Source: Eledone cirrhosa
Taxonomy: Eukaryota
NCBI GenBank assembly: GCA_964016885.1
Contig: OZ024755.1
Coordinates: forward strand, 22,878,001 to 22,942,000
Length of the DNA stretch: 64,000 bases
Direction of reading: 5' to 3'
Shown here piece by piece: positions 1,464-62,302 of the stretch. Within the stretch, counting starts at the first letter, position 1. Each line of letters opens with the position of its first letter. The notes under the pieces are model-generated. The model did no database searches, had not been told where the DNA came from, and saw only the letters and a list, made by a program, of their open reading frames with translations. The translations under genes were made by a program, and so were the position numbers.

Positions 1464-1556
1464 TACACATACACACACACAGAGCACTAAAATGAAAATA
1501 AAAATATAGATACATACATACATGCATACAGACTCTCTCTCTCATATATATATGTG

Positions 1557-1615
<59 letters not shown>

Positions 1616-1803: not shown

Positions 1804-1906
1804 ACACACATACACATACACACAGAGCACTAAAATGAAAATAAAAATATAGATACATACATGCATACAGACATATACTCTCTCTCTCATATATATATGT
1901 GTATAT

Positions 1907-2093
1907 ATAGGAACCAGTAAGACCCCGACAGCTGAGCTCAAGCCGTTTCGACGGCTAATTCGAATTAGCCGTCGAAACGGCTTGAGCTCAGCTGTCGGGG
2001 TCTTACTGGTTCCTATTACCCACTCTACTACCTCAAGTATTGAGTACTTTGGTGCGTTATGGTCCACCTGGTTCCTTACCACATTTCCTTCGT

Positions 2094-2096
<3 letters not shown>
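1907..2096 (+). mobile_element. Palindrome-headed short element, copy 1 (110-bp perfect palindrome + ~80-bp tail)
   Basis: 1907-2016 is a perfect palindrome centred on TTCGAA (1961/1962), followed by the tail TACCCACTCTAC...GGTCCACCTGGTTCCTTACCAC. It is flanked by TA repeats and homologous to 2241-2447 and 25268-25402. Confidence 0.8.
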
Positions 2097-2177
<81 letters not shown>

Positions 2178-2240
2178 CAGAGGCATAGATATACAGACAC
2201 ATGCATATGTACATACACACACACACAGATATATATATAT

Positions 2241-2447
2241 ATAGGAAAATAGTCAGAACCCCGACGGCAGAGCTCAAGCTGTTTCGACAGCTATTTCTGG
2301 ACTAGTAGTCCAAAAATAGCTGTCGAAACGGCTTGAGCTCTGCCGTCAGGGTTCTGATACTTTTCCTATTACCCACTCTATTACCCTAAGTATTGAGTAC
2401 TCTGGTGCGTTATGGTCCACCTGGTTCCTTACCACACTTCCTTCATT
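2241..2447 (+). mobile_element. Palindrome-headed short element, copy 2 (129-bp imperfect palindrome + tail)
   Basis: ATAGGAAAA...GGACTAGTAGTCC...TTTTCCTAT (2241-2369) folds back on itself. The tail is nearly identical to that of copy 1, and the element sits within TA repeats. Confidence 0.8.
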
Positions 2448-3446
<999 letters not shown>

Positions 3447-3617: not shown

Positions 3618-3805
3618 TCGCTCTCCGACAGGTCTGCGGTCGTACCCCTGGCAGTGGAGACTTCTGGTGTCCTCGGCCCCAGGGCTACCTCCTTACTCAC
3701 AACCATAGGCGCTGAGGTGTGACCCCGCGAGTTGGAGTGGCTTTTCCAGCGTGTCTCCCTTGCCGTCCTCCGGGGAAACGCCTTCTCCATTCTGTCCGCT
3801 GGGGC
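3618..3805 (+). mobile_element. Fragment of a CRE/R2-group non-LTR retrotransposon restriction-like endonuclease C-terminus
   Basis: Reads YHSLSDRSAVVPLAVETSGVLGPRATSLLTTIG...WLFQRVSLAVLRGNAFSILS with one stop. This matches the recalled PxAVETxGxxG...FQRxSxAxxRGNA motif of CRE-like RLE domains. It is a GC-rich island. Confidence 0.65.
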
Positions 3806-3860: not shown

Positions 3861-4045
3861 TGGTGGATTGGCAGTATCGGTAGAGAGTCGGACGCCATGC
3901 TTTCTAGCATAGTTACATCCCTTTACGGTCTGAGTTCAAATCCCGCCGAGGTTAACTTTGCCTTTCATCCTTACGGGGTCGATAAAATAAAGTACCAGTA
4001 ATGTACTGGGTAATTGCTGTCCTTGTGCCTAAAGTAGAAACAATT
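3861..4045 (+). mobile_element. tRNA-derived SINE family A (Meta-like core)
   Basis: A-box-like TGGCAGTATCGG, B-box GAGTTCAAATCC, core ACTTTGCCTTTCATCCTTACGGGGTCGATAAAATAAAGTACCAG and AAACAATTA tail. More than 15 copies lie in the window. Confidence 0.88.
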
Positions 4046-4502
4046 ATATATAATCGCGCCAAGCTTAACTTTGCCTTTCATCCTTACGGGGCCGATAAAA
4101 TAAAGTACCAGTAAAGTACTGGGTTATTGCTGGCCTTGTGCCTAAAGTAGAAACAATTATATATAATCGCGCCAAGCTTAACTTTGCCTTTCATCCTTAC
4201 GGGGCCGATAAAATAAAGTACCAGTAAAGTACTGGGTTATTGCTGGCCTTGTGCCTAAAGTAGAAACAATTATATATAATCGCGCCAAGCTTAACTTTGC
4301 CTTTCATCCTTACGGGGGCCGATAAAATAAAGTATGAGTAATGCACTGGGATAATTGCTGGCCTTGTGCCTAAAGTAGAAACAATTATATATAATCGCGC
4401 CAAGCTTAACTTTGCCTTTCATCCTTACGGGGGCCGATAAAATAAAGTATGAGTAATGCACTGGGATAATTGCTGGCCTTGTACCAGAAGTAGAAACAAT
4501 TA
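3950..4502 (+). repeat. ~106-bp tandem array of the SINE A 3' half (5 units including the parent copy)
   Basis: The unit ...TAATCGCGCCAAGCTTAACTTTGCCTTTCATCC...GTAGAAACAATTA is repeated head-to-tail. Confidence 0.9.
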
Positions 4503-4777
4503 TATATATATATATATATATATCTGTCACAGTCACTCCTCTCTTTATATACTCATACATACAATCTCTCTTTCTCGCTCTAGCAATTTTATGAAATCAA
4601 AGAACAACAACACACACACAAGCTCATAAGCTACTGTTGGCTCTTGTATATATATATTACAAAAATACTCTCTTAGATCACATTAACCTATTCCTTACCA
4701 GATTCCTAAACACACATACTGCCTTGGATTTTTCAAGTCATTTTGAAAATAAGTAATTAAGATTTTGGAGGGATTCA

Positions 4778-4882
4778 ATAATTGTTTCTACTTTTGGCAC
4801 AAGGCCAGCAATCATTCCAGTGTATTACTGGTACTTTATTTTATCGACCCCGTAAGGATGAAAGGCAAAGTTAACCTCAGCA
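4778..4882 (-). mobile_element. SINE family A, 5'-truncated
   Basis: Reverse complement of the core and tail. Confidence 0.85.
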
Positions 4883-4966
4883 TAACTAACTTTCTTGTTA
4901 TGAAGTTGGTGTTTGTTGCAGGAAGGTTTTTATATAAAATTATGTTAGAAAGGTTTTAGATAAATA

Positions 4967-5164
4967 TGAGGGTCAGCTGAAATGTTCATAGGCTGACTAT
5001 GAAGGAGTGATGCTAGAGCTGTGAAATCTGGCAAGCATTAATTTCAACTCTTCTTATTAATAACTCCATTGTTTCTTTCCAGGGACTATGTTAAAAAATA
5101 AACCTCATTTGGTCATTTCATGAGAGTATCTGGGTCAACCTATGAACTTTTCAGTTGACCCTCT
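4967..5164. mobile_element. Tc1/mariner-type MITE
   Basis: 31-bp TIRs TGAGGGTCAGCTGAAATGTTCATAGGCTGAC / GTCAACCTATGAACTTTTCAGTTGACCCTCT, with TA on both sides (4965-66, 5165-66). It is inserted into an older TTAA-MITE sequence. Confidence 0.85.
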
Positions 5165-5259
5165 TATAAATGCTTTAAAACTTACCATATTTCTCATAAA
5201 AGACTACTTGAGATTTAGAAATTATTTTTAAAATAAACAATCAAGAATTTCAAGGGATT

Positions 5260-5480
5260 TAATAATGGTTTCTTATATAGGCACAAGGCCAGCAATTTGG
5301 GGGGAGGGGTAAGTCGATTAAATCAGCTCCAGTACATGACTGGTACTTTATTTTATCGACCCCGTAAGGATGAAAGGCAAAGTTAACCTCAGCGGGATTT
5401 GAACTCGGATCATAAAGGGTCGTAACTCTATGCTGCAAAGCATGGCGTCCGACCCGCAACCGATACTGCCAATTCACCAC
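5260..5480 (-). mobile_element. SINE family A (long-tail variant)
   Basis: Full head, core and tail in reverse orientation. Confidence 0.85.
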
Positions 5481-9360: not shown

Positions 9361-10189
9361 TCTATATGTGTGTGTGTGTTGTCATGCATCGATGGGAAAA
9401 ACCTGATACCATAGGTTTATTCAATTATGTTTTACCTGATGCTTAACAACAACATCAACTAAATTTACTCAATCAATCAATACATGTGTTGGACTGCTAA
9501 ATATCTAGCACACGATATTTTATGAGTGAATAGCATTTTTTTTCCTTAACCTCCTTGTTGGTAAGCAAGTTAAATGGTGACAAAGGAAATGGTTTTAACT
9601 ACAGACTACTGAATGAATGAGAGCTCCTTCCTGTATTAGTCTCTACTTTCACATTGTATGAATAAGTAGTTATTAAAGGAAATGTATTCTTTTAAATATG
9701 TGTGTGTGTGAGTGTGTGTATCAAAATATCATCATCATCATCATAATCTCAATATATATGTATCATCACCGTTTTATGTCCATTTTCCACACTAGCATGG
9801 GTTCAACGAGTATGTATGTATATGTATATATATATATATATATGTAGATAAATCTACCAAGAGTTTACGGTAGTGTCCAATCCGTATGAAGAACTCAATG
9901 TAATCCGGATATCATGGAAAGAAGAGATGCAATGAAAAATCACTTTCGGTGAAAGATAAACGGAATACAGAGTCAAGATAAAATATTAAAAAAATAATGA
10001 ATAAAACAATGAAACAGTTCCTTATATTAAACAAAAAAAGTTCATTATTTAACGATCGTTTCTCATCACATTAATAATTGAAGTCGTTATAATACTACAA
10101 ATTTTACAATGATCTGTTCACTAGTAAAAATGCTATAAACATTTCAATTAATTCAGGTGTGATAGTTTGCTTGAAGCATTGTGGAATAT

Positions 10190-10545
10190 GAAACTGAAAA
10201 GGTACGTATGTTGAGAAAGCCATCCAATGCAAGTGGGTTAGAATTATCAACATAAGAAGCCAGAAGGGAACGGAAGTAGAAAGTAAAAGTGGGAGAAGGA
10301 AAATAAAAGGAAAGGAAGGAAATCTCTGATTTCTTTGAAGCACCCCCTATGGAACTCGCCTTGATAATCCGAAGAATTTTGCAACTATTAAATTGCTAAG
10401 GTAACTTCCAGTCATTCTCCTTTTTCTTTAATTTCCCATCTCCCACTTTTTCTTTCCACCTCAATTTTCTTCTGACGTGTTACCTTCGTAATCTAACCCA
10501 CTTGCATTGGACGGCTTTCTAAACATATGTACAACTTCAGTTTTA
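10190..10545. repeat. Imperfect inverted repeat
   Basis: GAAAGCCATCCAATGCAAGTGGGTTAGA (~10215-10242) is mirrored by TCTAACCCACTTGCATTGGACGGCTTTC (~10492-10519). Inner purine-rich and pyrimidine-rich tracts also mirror loosely. Confidence 0.75.
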
Positions 10546-10849
10546 TTTTAATATATTTTCTACGCAATCATTACCGGATGTTAAGAGTTGAATATACATT
10601 GTCCTACTTTATATATTCAGTTCAAAGGATGCCAATAATCTAAACTATAATAAAGGAAGGTCTGCGGGACTGCGTACGGTTTATTTTTTTTTTATCCCGT
10701 TAGTAAAATAAGTTGGATTACTTTGAATAAATAATGAATGAATAATACATAATTTATCTACTAAATTTCGTAAACAAAAATAATTTCGTAAAAATCAATA
10801 ATTTATAAAGTGATTTCTTTTCAAAGTTGCACTTCCAGTATATCGTTGC

Positions 10850-16651: not shown

Positions 16652-16735
16652 GTCTGGTGGCAGATGTATCTGCCTTTTGATTGGTGGACTTTCTAGGCTC
16701 TGAGAAAAGTTCCTTAATGCTATTGTTGATAAATT

Positions 16736-16822
16736 TATTCCTTCTAGCTCGGCGAATAAAAAGATAACATTCGTCTATATATATATACGAATCTTATCTT
16801 TTTATTCACCGAGCTAGAAGGA

Positions 16823-16824
<2 letters not shown>
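16736..16824. repeat. Inverted repeat with ~40-bp arms around a TA spacer
   Basis: TATTCCTTCTAGCTCGGCGAATAAAAAGATAACATTCGT / ACGAATCTTATCTTTTTATTCACCGAGCTAGAAGGAATA. Confidence 0.85.
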
Positions 16825-16853
<29 letters not shown>

Positions 16854-25202: not shown

Positions 25203-25267
25203 AATATATAATATATAAATTATATATCATATATATATTTATATATATATGTGTGTATGTATATATA

Positions 25268-25402
25268 TCAGATTGGAGGCAGTAAAAACCAGTTAGACCA
25301 TTACTCACCAGAGTACTTGATGATACTAGGGGTGGCAGAGTGCATAATATTAAAAAAATTCAGGTCACCCCGATGGCTGAGCTACGGCCGTTTCAACTGC
25401 TG
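25268..25402 (-). mobile_element. Diverged third copy of the palindrome-headed element (tail + one arm)
   Basis: CCAGTTAGACCATTACTCACCAGAGTACTTGA...CACCCCGATGGCTGAGCTACGGCCGTTTCAAC matches the reverse complement of the tail and right arm of 1962-2080 / 2310-2430. Confidence 0.7.
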
Positions 25403-25599
25403 TTTTTATATATATATATATATAATATAATATATATGTACAGATATATGTATGCATATAATATATATGTACAGATATATGTATGCATATAATATATATG
25501 TACAAATATATATGTACATATAGTATATGTGTACACATATATGATTTGAGGGAGGATGGTGTATCATCTATTTGAGTGTGGATGGTATATCTTCACTAC

Positions 25600-26530: not shown

Positions 26531-26627
26531 GTGTGTGTATACAAAATGTAAATGGAAACAACAAAGCAAACAGCACAGTACAATGAAGAAATATATTAGT
26601 TTAACGCTTGATATAGCAAGAAAAGTG

Positions 26628-26663
26628 TCTTTACATTTCGGACACTAAGCCTTCATCAGAAGA
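26628..26663 (-). ncRNA. Degenerate minimal type I hammerhead ribozyme motif
   Basis: Minus strand: TCTT-CTGATGA-AGGCTTAGTGTCC-GAAA-TG-TA-AAGA. Stem I is TCTT/AAGA and the triplet is GUA; stems II and III are weakened. Confidence 0.5.
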
Positions 26664-27341
26664 TAGAATGAGGAATAAAAGATGAAATATGAACTTTTCA
26701 GAACAAAGGGTGTTGGACTTAGAATCATTATGTCATGGGTTCGATTCCTGGATTGAGTTATATGTTGTGTTCTTGAGCAAAACACTTCATTTCACGTTGC
26801 CCCAGTATACTCAGCTAAAAATGACTATCAGCAATAGCCGAGGATGTAATAACTCTGCGACGGACTGGTGTCTTGTATTCTCAGTGGCTTATCACCATGG
26901 AAACTGGGAGAAGAGCCAACCTGATAAGCCTCCAGGCTTGAAGGCACAACACAGCACCAGCGACTGAATATTAATTGCTCACCCTGTTGCTGGGTGTCAG
27001 GCAACTTACTAACTCAATCATTTACACTCTTAGTTAATCTTAATTCTTAACACCCAGTAATGATTCAGCAAAAAATATCTAAAAACGGGGGGATTTGTTA
27101 ACTTCAAATGTTTATATTATCTTTACCAGTGGACAGATCATTGTGAAAATGTGTAACATTAAGTGAAAGACTTTAATGTGATGCTGCTGTAGTGTTCTTT
27201 GGTACATTTGAAGAATATCTTGCTAATGTGGTTTCATATGGTACAGAATATTAAGAGTTAAATTCAAATAAATTATGGAAATAGAATTTTGTTACCAGAA
27301 ATATAGAATTACTGTATTTAATCAAGTATAATCAAGTATAT

Positions 27342-36037: not shown

Positions 36038-37210
36038 TTCTCATTATTGATTTCTAATTCAAGCACAAGGCCAGCAAATTTTGGGGGTGGGGGGTGGAGA
36101 GCAAAGTTGATTAAATCAACCCAAGTACTTGACTGGTACTTTATTTTATCGATTCCCTGTGGGTTGGAAGGCAAAGTGGTACTTGGTGAGATTTGAACTG
36201 AGAATCTAGAGTCAGAACAAATGACACTCTACTGATTCTACCAATCCACCGCCCTCTAACTTCTCATTATTAAGCTGGTGTCGGGGTGGTGGATTGGCAG
36301 TTTCGATAGAGGGTTGGACGCCATGCTTTGGGGCATAGAGTATGACCCTTTATGATCTGAGTTCAAATCCCGCCGAAGTTAACTTTGCCTTTCATCCTTA
36401 CGGGGTCGATAAAATAAAGTACCAGTCACGCACCGGGGTCGATTTAATTGACTTTCCCCTCCCCCATAATTGCTGGCCTTGTGCCTATATAAGAAACCAT
36501 TATTAAGCTGGTGTCAAGGGGAGTGCATTGGCAGTACCAGTAGAGTGTTAAACAACATGTTTTGTGGCATAGAGTTACATCTCTTTACGTTCTGAGTTCA
36601 AATCCCACCAAGTTTAGCTTTGCCTTTCATTCTTATGTGGTCAATAAAATAAAGTACCAGTAAGGCACTGGCATCGATTGTATCAAATTTCTTCTACCCT
36701 AAAATTGTTGGCCTTGTCCCTAAATCAGAAACCATTATTTGTTGTATAAATAGAGCAGTAGATTGGCAATATCGGTAGAGCGTCAGACAACATGACTTGC
36801 ATCATATAGTTATGGCCCTTTACATTCTGAGTTCAAATACCGCCGGGATAGCTTTGCCTTTCATCCTTACAGGGTCGATAAAATAAAGTACCAGTAATGC
36901 ACTGAGGTAAATTTAATTGAATTTCCCCTTCCCCAAAAATTGTTGGCATTGTGCCTAAATCAGAAGCCAATATTAAGTTGGTGTCAAGGGTGGTGGGTTG
37001 GTAGGATCGGTAGAGCATTGGACAAAATGTTTTGCAGTGTTTACTTATGACTTTCTACATTCTGAGTTCAAAACCTGCTGAAGTAAATTTAACTTTCATC
37101 CTTCCATGGTCGAAAAATAAAGTATAGATGTTGATAAATTTGACTTTTCCCTTTCACCAAATTTCTAACTCTTGTGTCAATGTTAGAAAGAGTTTATTAA
37201 GCTGGTGTTT
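36038..37210. mobile_element. Stack of five SINE family A copies (one minus, four plus) inside a TTAA MITE
   Basis: Copies at ~36048-36255(-), 36283-36500, 36518-36737, 36755-36972 and 36988-37195(+). The target ATTAAGCTGGTGT recurs at ~36268, 36502, 36972 and 37196. Confidence 0.85.
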
Positions 37211-42606: not shown

Positions 42607-42641
<35 letters not shown>

Positions 42642-42712
42642 TAGTGGTAGAACACTGGAAGGTAATATCCGTAGTGGTAGAGCACTCAGTCCATGGGACG
42701 AGTTTGGTAGAA

Positions 42713-42799
42713 GTAGTTCCACAACAGTTAGTTCACCGCTATGGTGAACTAACTGTTGTGGAACTACCTGAAGTGGTTACACAACAGTTAGTTCACCAT
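42713..42799. repeat. 25-bp perfect hairpin plus a third arm copy
   Basis: GTAGTTCCACAACAGTTAGTTCACC-GCTAT-GGTGAACTAACTGTTGTGGAACTAC; CACAACAGTTAGTTCACCAT occurs again at 42780-42799. Confidence 0.85.
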
Positions 42800-43139
42800 A
42801 CCGAGAACAATTGTTTCACCTTAGCGGATCCTCAGCTCATAATGGACATGGTTATATGGAACAGGAAGGACAACCGTACAAACGTGGATGCGCAGAAACG
42901 ATCACTTCACTGGGAATCGAAATCTTGACCTTATGATCAGAAGCCAAACACCCTAACCAGGAGGCTATGAATTTTCACATATACAATATATATATATGGG
43001 AGTGGGGAATATATTACATATATATATCTATATTTATATGTGCAATTTACTTCATATATATATATATATATATATGCAATATATTCCCGATATATCATCA
43101 TCATCATCATTGTTTAGCATCTGTTTTCCTTGTTAGCAA

Positions 43140-44326: not shown

Positions 44327-44741
44327 GATAATAATAATGTAGATCTTTGATCTTTACCAATTAACTATCTCATGTTAATGACTATTGTGAACAGCACCAA
44401 TTATAATGCAATAAAGTTTGATATGAGCTAATAAAAAAAATATTGAGAAAACATGAAACTATGAGATATTACAGAACTATGAGATAGTACAGAAAGATGA
44501 AGGTGTGGGAGGTGTATTAAGGATTTATTTTTCTTCACTAGAATAGCTTTACCAGTGCATCTCTCTTGCAATCCTCTGGGGAGTAATACTTTTCTAATTC
44601 TGTCCACTGGGAGCTTCAGGTAATATCCGAACATGCACCTGAGGTTCTGTATGTCAGAGGGGTAGATAACTTTTCATTTGTTCGTTTGAACTGTTAAAAT
44701 TGGTCACAGCCTACATGCATATGTATATATACACATACATA

Positions 44742-47503
44742 GAGCAGGGGAACACGCCAGCCAGATAGATTATATCCTTACGAGAAGAAGGGACAAAGTG
44801 TCTGTTGTAAACATTAAATCCCTACCCCGTGAAGTATGCACCTCCCAACATAGCCTAGTAGTTAGTGACCTCATAGTCAGGAATAGACGTACTCGACGAC
44901 AGAAGAGGCCTACCTTGAGGAGAAGAATATGGAAGTTGAAGGACCCCATAGCCAGTGACAAATTTAAAAACTTATTACTTGATGCCTTTGACAATAAGGA
45001 AGAGCAATTAGAGACATGCGATATAGAGGAACAGTGGCAATTCTTGAAAGTGAACCTGCTGAAAGCAACGGATGAAGTCTGTGGCTGGAGCAGACCTATT
45101 GGCAGGAGAAGAGTAACTTGGTGGTGGAACAGTAAGGTGGAAGAGACAACCAAGGCCAAAAAGCAGGCTTGGAAAGTATGGCAGCATGGGGGAAGTAGAG
45201 AGCACTATCAAGTGGCCAGGAGAGAAGCTAGGAGACAAGTGTACCTTGCAAAAAGGGTAGCAGAGGATAGAAAGTTCAAGCATGTTCTACAACGTGAGGA
45301 CCAAAAACGTGAGGTGTTCAGGATTGCTAGACAATGTGTCAAGGAAAACCGTGATATTGTCGGGGAGAAGTGTGTCCGTAATGATAACGGTGTACTTGCG
45401 CTCACTGATACTGATAAGAAGATAGTGTCACTACAAGAGACTATTAAATGAGGAGAATAAATGGGAAAAAGATAGTCTGCCCCAAATCGATCCAATAGAA
45501 GGACCAGCGGTGCAAGTTAAAGGTAGTATAATAAGTAAGGCAATCAAAGATATGAAGACAGGCAAGGCAGCTGAGCCTTCGGAGATAGTTGCTGAGATGT
45601 TGAAGCATCTGGTATGGTGGGACACACTATGGTCACCCGTATAGTTAACCAAGTAATACAGAATGGGGTCATACCGAAAGACTGGAGTAGCAGCATCATC
45701 ATTAACTGCTACAAAGGTAAAGGGGATGCTCTAGATTGGGGAAATTATAGAGGCATTAAGTTAGTTGACCAGGTCATGAAGGTCACAGAAAGAGTTATAG
45801 CGCAACTAATCAGAGAGCGAATTGATTTAGATGAAATGCAGTTTGGGTTTGTGTCAGGTAAAAGTACCGGAGAAAGCCTTTGACAGAGTCCCCCATTCCA
45901 TTATCTAGTGGGCTCTTAGAAAACTAGGTGTAGATGAATGGCTTGTGAGAGCTATACAAGCTATATATAATGAAACAGTCAGTAAGGTTAGAATTAACAA
46001 TGAATATTGTGAAGAATTTAGTGTAAAAGTTGGCGTTCATCAAGGCTCTGTCCTTAGCCCCCTCCTATTTATTATTGCCCTTCAGGCTATAACAGAGGAG
46101 TTCAAGACGGGCTGCCCATGACAACTCCTATACGCAGATGATCTAACGCTCATAGCTGAATCAATGGCTGAACTAGAGAAGAAATTCCAAACATGGAAGC
46201 ATGGCCTAGAATCAAAAGGCCTTAAAGTTAACTTGTCTAAGACTAAAGTTCTAGTTTGTAGAAAGGAAAATAGGGCACAGATGCCCTCAGGGAAATGGCC
46301 ATGCTCAGTGTGTAGGAAAGGAGTAGGCAGAAATTCCATTTTATGTCCCAAATGCAAAGTATGGGTACATAAAAGATGTAGTGGGATCACAGGTAAACTA
46401 TCTAAGAACGTAGATTTTATATGTGGCCGATGCTCAGGTGCAATAAGTAGCAAGTGTCCACAGGATACTAGCTCCTTCTATTGCCCAGATGGTTCAATAG
46501 AAATAGTAGACACTTTTCGTTACCAGGGTGACGATATCAGCAGTGGAGGAGGGTGTTCTGAAAGTACAGTAGCCAGAGTCAGAACGGGATGGAAAAAGTT
46601 CAGAGAGCTTATACTGCTGTTGGCCACAAAAGGTTTCTCTCTAAAAATGAAAGGCAGATTGTATGATGTTTGTATACGAACAGCAATGCTACATAGCAGT
46701 GAGACATGGGCATTACGTGCAGAGGACCTGCGCAGATGGGAAAGGAACGAAGCATGCATGCTCCGTTGGATGTGTAATAGTAATATACGTGAACGGCAAA
46801 ACATAAATGAACTAAGTGAGAAATTAGGAATAAGAGGGATCAGATGCTGTTTATTTGAGAGAAGACTATGTTGGTATGGCCACGTGATACGCATGAAAGA
46901 CGACAGCTGTATAAAAAAGTGCAGGGCGATCAAAATTGATGGTAGTTACAGAGTAGGTAGACCCAGAAAAACCTGGGAGGATCTAATAAATTCCGACCTT
47001 ACACACTTGCACCTCTCTAAGACAATGTCACTGGACCGAGATCTTTGGCGCTATGCAGTAATACAGAAGACCTGCCTTGCCTATGTACTAAGCGAAACCT
47101 ACAGTCAGTAGGCACCTCTTAAACCAAATATACACCACAATCCACTACCCCTACCCTATCCTCCCACTCCCACCAACACCAACCTCTCTCTGTAAAGTTG
47201 GTACCACAACATCCAGTCCAAATAAATGAGATAATGAGATTGAGATCGTGTAGGTGTCACGACAAAACAGACACAGTCGACGCTGTAATGTGGCCGTGTA
47301 TGTAACACGGTAAAAAGTTCCCAGTTCCACACTGTAAATGTGGTTGGTGTTAGGAAGGGCATCCAGCCATAGAAAACTTGCCAGATAGTCCTATATGAGC
47401 GAGACACGGTCACCCAACCAACCTTGATTCAAATTGGGACAACTCCCACCTAACCCATGCTAGCGTGGAAAATGGACGTTAAACGAAGATGATGATGATG
47501 ATG
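44742..47503 (+). mobile_element. 5'-truncated, decayed RTE-clade LINE (APE C-terminus, RT, Cys/His finger, 3' UTR)
   Basis: QIDYIL...SQHSLV (APE end), WWN, YKGKGD...NYRGIKL, QFGF, KAFD, GVHQGSVLSPLLF, LYADD (YADD 46131-46142), WYGHV..R, GRPRKTW and a (TGA)n tail. It has several frameshifts and stops. Confidence 0.93.
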
Positions 47504-61614: not shown

Positions 61615-62302
61615 AGGATTTATATCGATTGAATGCTAAAAGCATAGAAGCCATCTCAGTAATTCCGACCTTGCATCCTGGAGAACGGCTCAATGATAAC
61701 ACGAATGAAGATAACTTATTACAGAGCAAACTCAGTGCTAGATATTCTCAGGAAAGCAATACCTGAATAGAACATATTAAAGCTGATGACAATCAAAGAA
61801 ATCTAGGAAATTTAACAATTTAACCAAAAAAAAAAAAAAAAAATGCTAGCGCCTGGACCGTTTGGTTTCGACCCATGAAAAAAAATTCACTAATTACGAG
61901 TATTAGAAATTAATTATCAGAAAATCAAAACGGGGTTCTTATGAACAGGTCATCATAATAATAGCCAAAAATTCTTATGTCTAGATCAACGTTTCTCAAC
62001 CTTTTTACCCTTGCATAACCCTTAAAATAAATTACATGTCTCAAGGAACCCCTGCGCAAAAACATAATTATATACCATATCTTTCTCATTTTATTTTCAT
62101 CGTAGTTCACGTGCACAGCCTCTATCTAGACTCTAGATAGAAGGCTGTGCGCCTGTGTTTTTAGAAGGATGGTATTATACATATATTATTATCACGGTTT
62201 TGGTAGTCTGGAAAATATGTTTTGTTCTATTTTTGACTTCCACGAAGTAAACCTCTCTACAAAAAAGTGAATCAGCCTTTTATGTTATTTCCAAAACTAT
62301 TC

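Follow-up and report, generated by a model that had tools for sequence, protein, structure and literature searches.

Endonuclease-bearing Penelope-like elements are known for (TA)n targets and for units in which a 5'-truncated copy is inverted and just one end has a tail (PMC8557442, in its available part; PMC3846280), and a preference for (TA)n is recorded in the accessible source text for Neptune, Hydra and Naiad. The origin of the inverted ends is stated as an open question in PMC3846280 and in the available part of PMC8557442, and the former interpreted palindromic junctions as self-priming. According to the accessible sections of PMC11167929, a Penelope-like protein, purified and predicted to dimerize, cuts both strands of the target and extends them, with reverse transcription starting at two internal sites bounding the tail. 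Penelope-like elements have also been described as having a palindromic helix III and pairs of minimal hammerheads on the two strands (PMC4209133, in the part available).

The repeat family studied here lies in animal DNA rich in microsatellites; "the window" below means the whole 64-kb stretch analysed. With the Penelope/Poseidon, Neptune, Hydra and Naiad units (PMC8557442, available part; PMC3846280) the family shares the head-to-head inverted 5'-truncated copy, and also the one-end tail, the target duplication, the (TA)n surroundings and, here only as a half, a hammerhead-type motif near the 3' end. It differs from the published units, to the extent that the available parts of these sources describe them, in that no coding frame was seen, the stubs measure 140–210 bp and, of the ribozyme, only the GAAA and cleavage-site strands are present; the tail of 80 nt, in comparison with the published 30–40, speaks against a Penelope-like origin. 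The preliminary description had proposed a link to Penelope-like elements, and the insertion footprint, rather than a protein, makes a Penelope-type assignment likely. We further consider copies 1 and 2 to be likely stubs of such an element, with the mirror half made at insertion. The architecture had also been thought undescribed, but the inverted 5'-truncated copy, one-end tail and (TA)n target are already published (PMC8557442, available part; PMC3846280), and the locus adds a case, not a kind. What the family offers is its thousands of short copies, with fixed 3' ends and variable junctions, in which counting can separate self-priming from double priming.

Three copies and a target-site duplication

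The perfect 110-bp palindrome of copy 1, the 129-bp near-palindrome of copy 2 and the tail of about 80 bp common to the two, all noted in the preliminary description, were borne out by the sequence (Table 1). The palindrome at 1907–2016 is the only perfect one of at least 24 bp with a GC content above 25% in the 64-kb window, and its folding z is −23. That of copy 2 (2241–2369) is centered on the single base 2305 and contains six mismatched pairs (2250–2252, 2262/2348, 2280/2330 and 2297/2313), two of them of CpG type. The tails 2017–2096 and 2370–2449 differ at 6 of 80 positions, and the arms of the two copies at 15 of 58 columns. The further claim that most such differences are mirrored in both arms held for 11 of these 15, but one of the examples given for it, CCAGTAAGAC/ATAGTCAGAAC, is not fully mirrored, with three mismatches in copy 2. 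The start of copy 3 lies about 13 nt upstream of GAAA; the copy was found by nhmmer with a profile that itself includes copy 3, and a BLAST search from copy 2 recovered it with an E value of 2e-12. All three copies are surrounded by (TA)n, which is also seen in the loose ends of the family.

Table 1. Positions of the element copies and associated features in the window
Feature	Position	Strand	Remark
Target-site duplication, left	1896..1909	+	14 bp; last 3 bases common to palindrome end
Target-site duplication, right	2094..2107	+	14 bp
Empty paralogous site	1525..1580	+	Local tandem duplicate; duplicated word once (1551–1564)
Copy 1, inverted 5'-truncated piece	1907..1961	-	Tail-less
Copy 1, direct piece, arm part	1962..2016	+	2016 is the second, internal 3' end of the family
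Hammerhead-like half, copy 1	1971..2001	+	GAAA, stem III with 9-nt loop, GUC, G-rich stem I strand
Copy 1, tail	2017..2096	+	One end only
Copy 2, inverted 5'-truncated piece	2241..2304	-	
Copy 2, direct piece, arm part	2306..2369	+	Includes hammerhead-like half 2322–2352
Copy 2, tail	2370..2449	+	
Copy 3, diverged	25265..25407	-	Direct piece and tail in (TA)n; without inverted arm or CUGANGA

The duplication around copy 1 encloses the palindrome and the tail as one unit. The 14-bp word is of low complexity, occurring eight times on the plus strand of the window, yet it is located exactly at both element ends, and because of its low complexity it is the empty paralogous site that carries the case for insertion. 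Copy 2 is flanked by a possible 10-bp duplication of pure TA (2234–2243 / 2447–2456); copies 2 and 3 are both in pure TA, where target duplications are uninformative. Copies 1 and 2 are real, separate insertions of a high-copy short repeat.

MITEs and foldback DNA transposons have inverted repeats at both termini and a short fixed duplication directly outside these. Terminal inverted repeats of this kind could explain the symmetry of a short, non-coding unit with an inverted repeat in a TA-rich target. Here, the 14-bp duplication lies outside the palindrome and the tail together, on which ground we rejected this candidate as extremely improbable; in addition, the two element ends are not inverted repeats of one another and the copies are 5'-truncated. 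We give hardly any weight, either, to a fold-back chimera formed in the assembly or library: the palindromes are read-supported at the family level, with no listed read or contig reaching across the whole of either locus, but a chimera would have to arise at two loci with unlike centers, the arms of copy 2 are separated by CpG-type decay, the target duplication has an empty paralogue, and junctions are present in raw reads as well as in independent contigs.

The window contains further inverted repeats. One of 1.1 kb at 569–1675 is 91% self-complementary and consists mostly of microsatellite, its right end adjoining the tandem duplicate that contains copy 1. At 16729–16832, a near-palindrome of 104 bp (90%) has a short (TA)n stretch as its center; it is followed by (TA)n and is unrelated to the studied element. 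Older inverted repeats, 67–70% self-complementary, are found at 10185–10549 and 36045–36502, the latter involving a dispersed repeat of the window. A dispersed short repeat is present in five tandem copies at 3939–4508, spaced by 113–115 bp, and in inverted copies at 4723–5393.

Two 3' ends and head-to-head junctions

We matched public sequencing runs, consisting of one raw RAD run and contig sets, to the element at 80% likeness. The first query matched 21,296 of 12,467,656 raw RAD reads and 12,154 of 16,285,364 contigs, and the second 22,701 raw RAD reads and 16,403 of 16,517,967 contigs; these read and contig totals are not copy numbers. The family is abundant. It ends at two fixed 3' positions separated by about 80 nt, one at the end of the tail and one internal at 2016/2369, and 3442 and 3456 raw reads for the two queries pass from the internal end into (TA)n, the read-derived loose ends being viewed to 30 letters outside the query. 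RAD read ends also pile up at 1963, which likely reflects a restriction cut, not biology. The arm of copy 1 was found unchanged in a contig of depth 59.6, several other matching contigs of the same run having depths of 2–6, and it is therefore simply a young subfamily. Among 24 run rows, 9, filed under 7 organism codes, contained at least half of 12 element words; sister runs often had none, and we therefore make no claim about the species range. None of the runs listed with element words was an RNA run, a result with no bearing on expression. Exact-pattern scans of metagenome, viral and prokaryote genome collections returned no relatives and did not reveal a parent element bearing a reverse transcriptase/GIY-YIG frame. 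The family was unmatched in short-motif searches of the available part of the PMC8557442 supplement, where sequences are line-wrapped and partly cut such that a match could be missed, and the open-access literature yielded no paper on the family or on any stub family without CUGANGA.

To describe the junctions we queried with the right half of copy 2, which is not palindromic, and considered the best 15 of 23 joints. Thirteen of these connect opposite strands in a head-to-head geometry. Of their inverted arms, 11 end at 2306–2322, while the other piece may start anywhere between 2310 and 2413; for 8 of these 13 joints the direct piece begins at 2378–2413, past the arm end at 2369. As the joints are a selected top slice, 8/13 is not a frequency, and contigs break at true palindromes, leaving palindromic and overlapping junctions under-represented there. 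Each side of the eight non-overlapping joints has at least 33 letters, and three of them come from raw reads (53 reads with 1 start, 9 with 2 and 17 with 4). With the other query, the downstream side is past 2016 in 11 of the best 15 of 23 joints, although most of these sides are shorter than 30 letters and one is perhaps a plain deletion.

The preliminary description had suggested that the end of a cDNA (or antisense RNA) folds on itself and is copied back into the mirror arm, a proposal that nearly coincides with self-priming as modelled by Arkhipova et al. 2013. Such folding agrees with the perfectly symmetric center of copy 1, the one-base center of copy 2 and one near-symmetric raw-read junction at 2309/2310 (62 reads, 1 start), as well as with the interpretation of palindromic junctions in PMC3846280. 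A strand cannot, however, copy sequence absent from itself, and fold-back therefore does not account for the 8 of 13 joints (among the best 15 of 23) whose inverted arm comes from sequence missing in the direct piece. The stop of the arm at the fixed position 2016 is likewise not explained by fold-back but is explained by a second priming site (PMC11167929, available part). Self-priming may fit copies as symmetric as copy 1, whereas it does not fit the non-overlapping ones, and as a general mechanism for the family we consider it unlikely; the non-overlapping junctions favor double priming over self-priming.

We think it probable that, at each insertion, a Penelope-like enzyme copied one RNA from two starts onto two cut DNA ends. 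A GIY-YIG endonuclease would cut (TA)n with a stagger, one cut end would prime reverse transcription at the end of the tail (2096) and the other at the internal position 2016, both cDNAs would extend toward the 5' end of the RNA with most stopping about 10–35 nt upstream of GAAA, and the two cDNA ends would then be joined. Two cDNAs running through the same stretch would produce a palindrome, a tail-primed cDNA stopping early an inversion without overlap, and a single cDNA a plain stub such as copy 3. With a shared template the arms would match at insertion and drift later, and the likely reason for the missing CUGANGA is that the copied RNA starts, or copying halts, downstream of it. Later loss of one arm could also give non-overlapping junctions, tail-less direct copies could also yield the reads ending at 2016, and the symmetric center of copy 1 is equally compatible with fold-back. 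Among the closest described systems is the Anolis PAc Poseidon in vitro (PMC11167929, available part), which has two reverse transcription starts bounding the tail and an AT-rich target and, as a further likeness, cuts and extends both target strands; it differs from our family in having a full hammerhead and a protein, and the available part shows no inverted products.

The arms of copy 2 share letters that are in the minority in the family, with a naive product of family frequencies of 0.005 (0.066 for copy 1), a product that ignores linkage and includes one shared letter (2321) that is a CpG-type change. One template therefore fits both arms of copy 2. The same arms carry separate private changes, two of them of CpG type, that were never repaired, and because the arms mutated separately, ongoing conversion is not supported. 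This bears on the idea, also raised in the preliminary description, that symmetry is maintained by gene conversion or hairpin replication, in which case the whole palindrome would be mobile and copied from palindromic masters. The 11 inter-copy differences mirrored in both arms are in line with such masters, but the centers vary between copies and reads, copy 3 is without a mirror and six mismatches stand unrepaired in copy 2, two being CpG-type, and we regard this origin as very improbable.

The hammerhead-like half and the missing CUGANGA

The right arms had been parsed as stem II, GAAA, stem III, GUC and stem I of a hammerhead without a CUGANGA core, and this parse (1971–2000 and 2322–2351) is correct as written, the exact motif being missing from all three copies on either strand. 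GAAA, stem III and an NUH site are features of type I hammerheads, and the half motif is situated about 100 nt before the 3' end, where Penelope-like elements carry hammerheads. The strict half motif appeared in 38 and 47 of 20,000 shuffles and a loose form in 475 and 684 (0.2–3%); the half motif is rarer than chance. CUGANGA flanked by the 5' strands of stems I and II is likewise missing in the three copies on both strands, no fitting CUGANGA block with a stem I or stem II partner was found within the window, and there was no CUGANGA in the loose ends listed (17 of 300 rows and 16 of 365 rows). Rfam gave no match at all within the window at the gathering level and, at E values up to 10, generic hairpin and repeat matches only, among 72 and 67 rows; this silence is weak, two intact-core motifs in the window having likewise been missed.

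The copies carry only half of what is probably a self-cutting RNA. The mirror arm had been placed where CUGANGA should be; as the core is missing with or without the mirror, both being lacking in copy 3 and in the upstream loose ends, the mirror is not a replacement for it, and CUGANGA is either outside the copied sequence or lost. Three readings of its absence remain. We consider it most likely that the core is located further upstream and was never copied. The template of one subfamily extends to some 32 nt before GAAA, and in another the upstream stretch is related but different, both without CUGANGA in the rows listed. Contigs from two low-coverage runs have about 20 letters in common upstream of 1962 and diverge beyond, which we read, from the agreement values of three or four contigs, as the 5' limit of the template. 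A second reading is that the core was deleted in the ancestor of the family. Consistent with a deletion are an 8-nt A-rich stretch at the 5' limit that, in some subfamilies, is complementary to the stretch after stem I, and a 6-bp hairpin just before the stem II strand, both noticed by eye and post hoc.

The third reading, that the half motif is no hammerhead remnant and either resembles one by chance or is a hairpin that serves the enzyme, appears doubtful to us. In its favor are the lack of CUGANGA and of any stem I or stem II partner, the lack of an Rfam hammerhead match even at E values up to 10, and the predicted best fold of the stub, in which the stem III strand pairs with an upstream hexamer and GAAA is buried in a loop. 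The rarity of the strict motif in the shuffles, its position relative to the 3' end and the weakness of the Rfam result stand against it. Conservation is cited on both sides. Copy 3 retains 20 of the 22 core letters, both changes being of CpG type, compared with 81 of 113 letters elsewhere (P = 0.064), which argues against a look-alike. Family-wide, non-CpG variants affect 0 of 22 core positions and 25 of 110 outside (P = 0.014), a difference obtained only with five rows private to copy 2 and five CpG rows dropped; it disappears with the CpG rows kept (3/22 vs. 27/110, P = 0.40) and with all rows (P = 0.44), and the tail holds a 17-nt invariant run as long as that of the core, both of which agree with a look-alike. 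The case for selection on the half motif, as judged from these patterns, is weak.

The hexamer before GAAA is, in the family, the same as the 3' strand of stem III (1967–1982, 1991–1997), and the 5' strand of stem III therefore has two possible partners. Two junctions end 1–3 nt past GUC, a contig at 2349 and a joint at 2350, and could be taken as a faint hint of cleavage. It is conceivable that, as the preliminary description suggested as an alternative, the element presents a trans-cleavable substrate half on both strands. We see little probability in a natural split hammerhead, in which an RNA starting about 32 nt before GAAA would have selected GAAA and cleavage strands and receive CUGANGA from elsewhere. 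The latter would come from another transcript or from a remote region of the parent RNA that is never copied, and the repeated hexamer upstream of GAAA would maintain an off fold until the CUGANGA strand binds. If true, this would be a high-copy animal retroelement with cutting switched on in trans; the missing strand matters only if the parent RNA is also without the core and the remainder is conserved and cleavable.

Related ribozymes and other repeats

The family has GAAA, a helix III with a palindromic loop, and a UH site with a stem I strand after it in common with the type I and minimal hammerheads that Penelope-like elements carry (PMC4209133, available part). It differs from those described there in the longer helix III, with five pairs and a 9-nt loop, and in being without CUGANGA or a 5' strand for either helix I or helix II. 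The 3' ends of Naiad_Obim and Naiad_Ovul, as given in the available part of the PMC8557442 supplement, come from the same kind of host and have a (TA)n target, and a comparison of order made by eye shows GUCGAAAC followed by a G-rich strand at similar spacing. Several subfamilies of our family have, again by eye, CUGA directly after the G-rich strand. Unlike in our family, the Naiad ends in that part of the supplement place the cleavage strand upstream and a complete CUGAUGA downstream, whereas the downstream CUGA of the family is never followed by NGA and there is no upstream stem I partner. We therefore rejected a hammerhead of scrambled order, of the SGC/Naiad type (PMC10085705, available part), as there is no downstream CUGANGA and no upstream cleavage strand.

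Animal non-LTR retrozymes (10.64898/2026.07.22.740005, in the part available) are likewise short, non-coding and likely mobilized by a Penelope-like enzyme. The copied sequence of our family apparently ends at a 5' limit instead of continuing round a circle; a retrozyme of this kind, as described there, was rejected on account of three dispersed, non-tandem copies with different flanks and no complete hammerhead.

Other hammerhead-like motifs are also present in the window. At 26625–26670, on the minus strand, there is a minimal type I hammerhead with an intact core (CUGAUGA, a short stem II, GAAA and a 4-bp stem I) that Rfam did not report; it leads into a tail and (TA)n and likely represents another Penelope-type family. 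The minus strand of 42640–42850 carries an intact-core hammerhead resembling the Hydra-clade rows in the available part of the PMC8557442 supplement, after which come a hairpin unit repeated three times in direct and inverted order, an AC-rich end and (TA)n. A second GAAA/stem III/GUC half motif, unrelated in sequence, lies on the minus strand at 61845–61880 with no fitting CUGANGA close upstream; there is a CUGAUGA at 61783, on the strand opposite to this half motif.

Of retroelement coding sequence, the window contains a broken non-LTR retrotransposon frame at 44690–47111, where the domain scan gave matches in one of five frames: the last piece matches the PHD finger and, weakly (E = 4e-6, short of the Pfam cut-off), reverse transcriptase. 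The translation of a fragment at 3620–3800 resembles what we take to be the restriction-like endonuclease end of CRE/NeSL-type retroelements.
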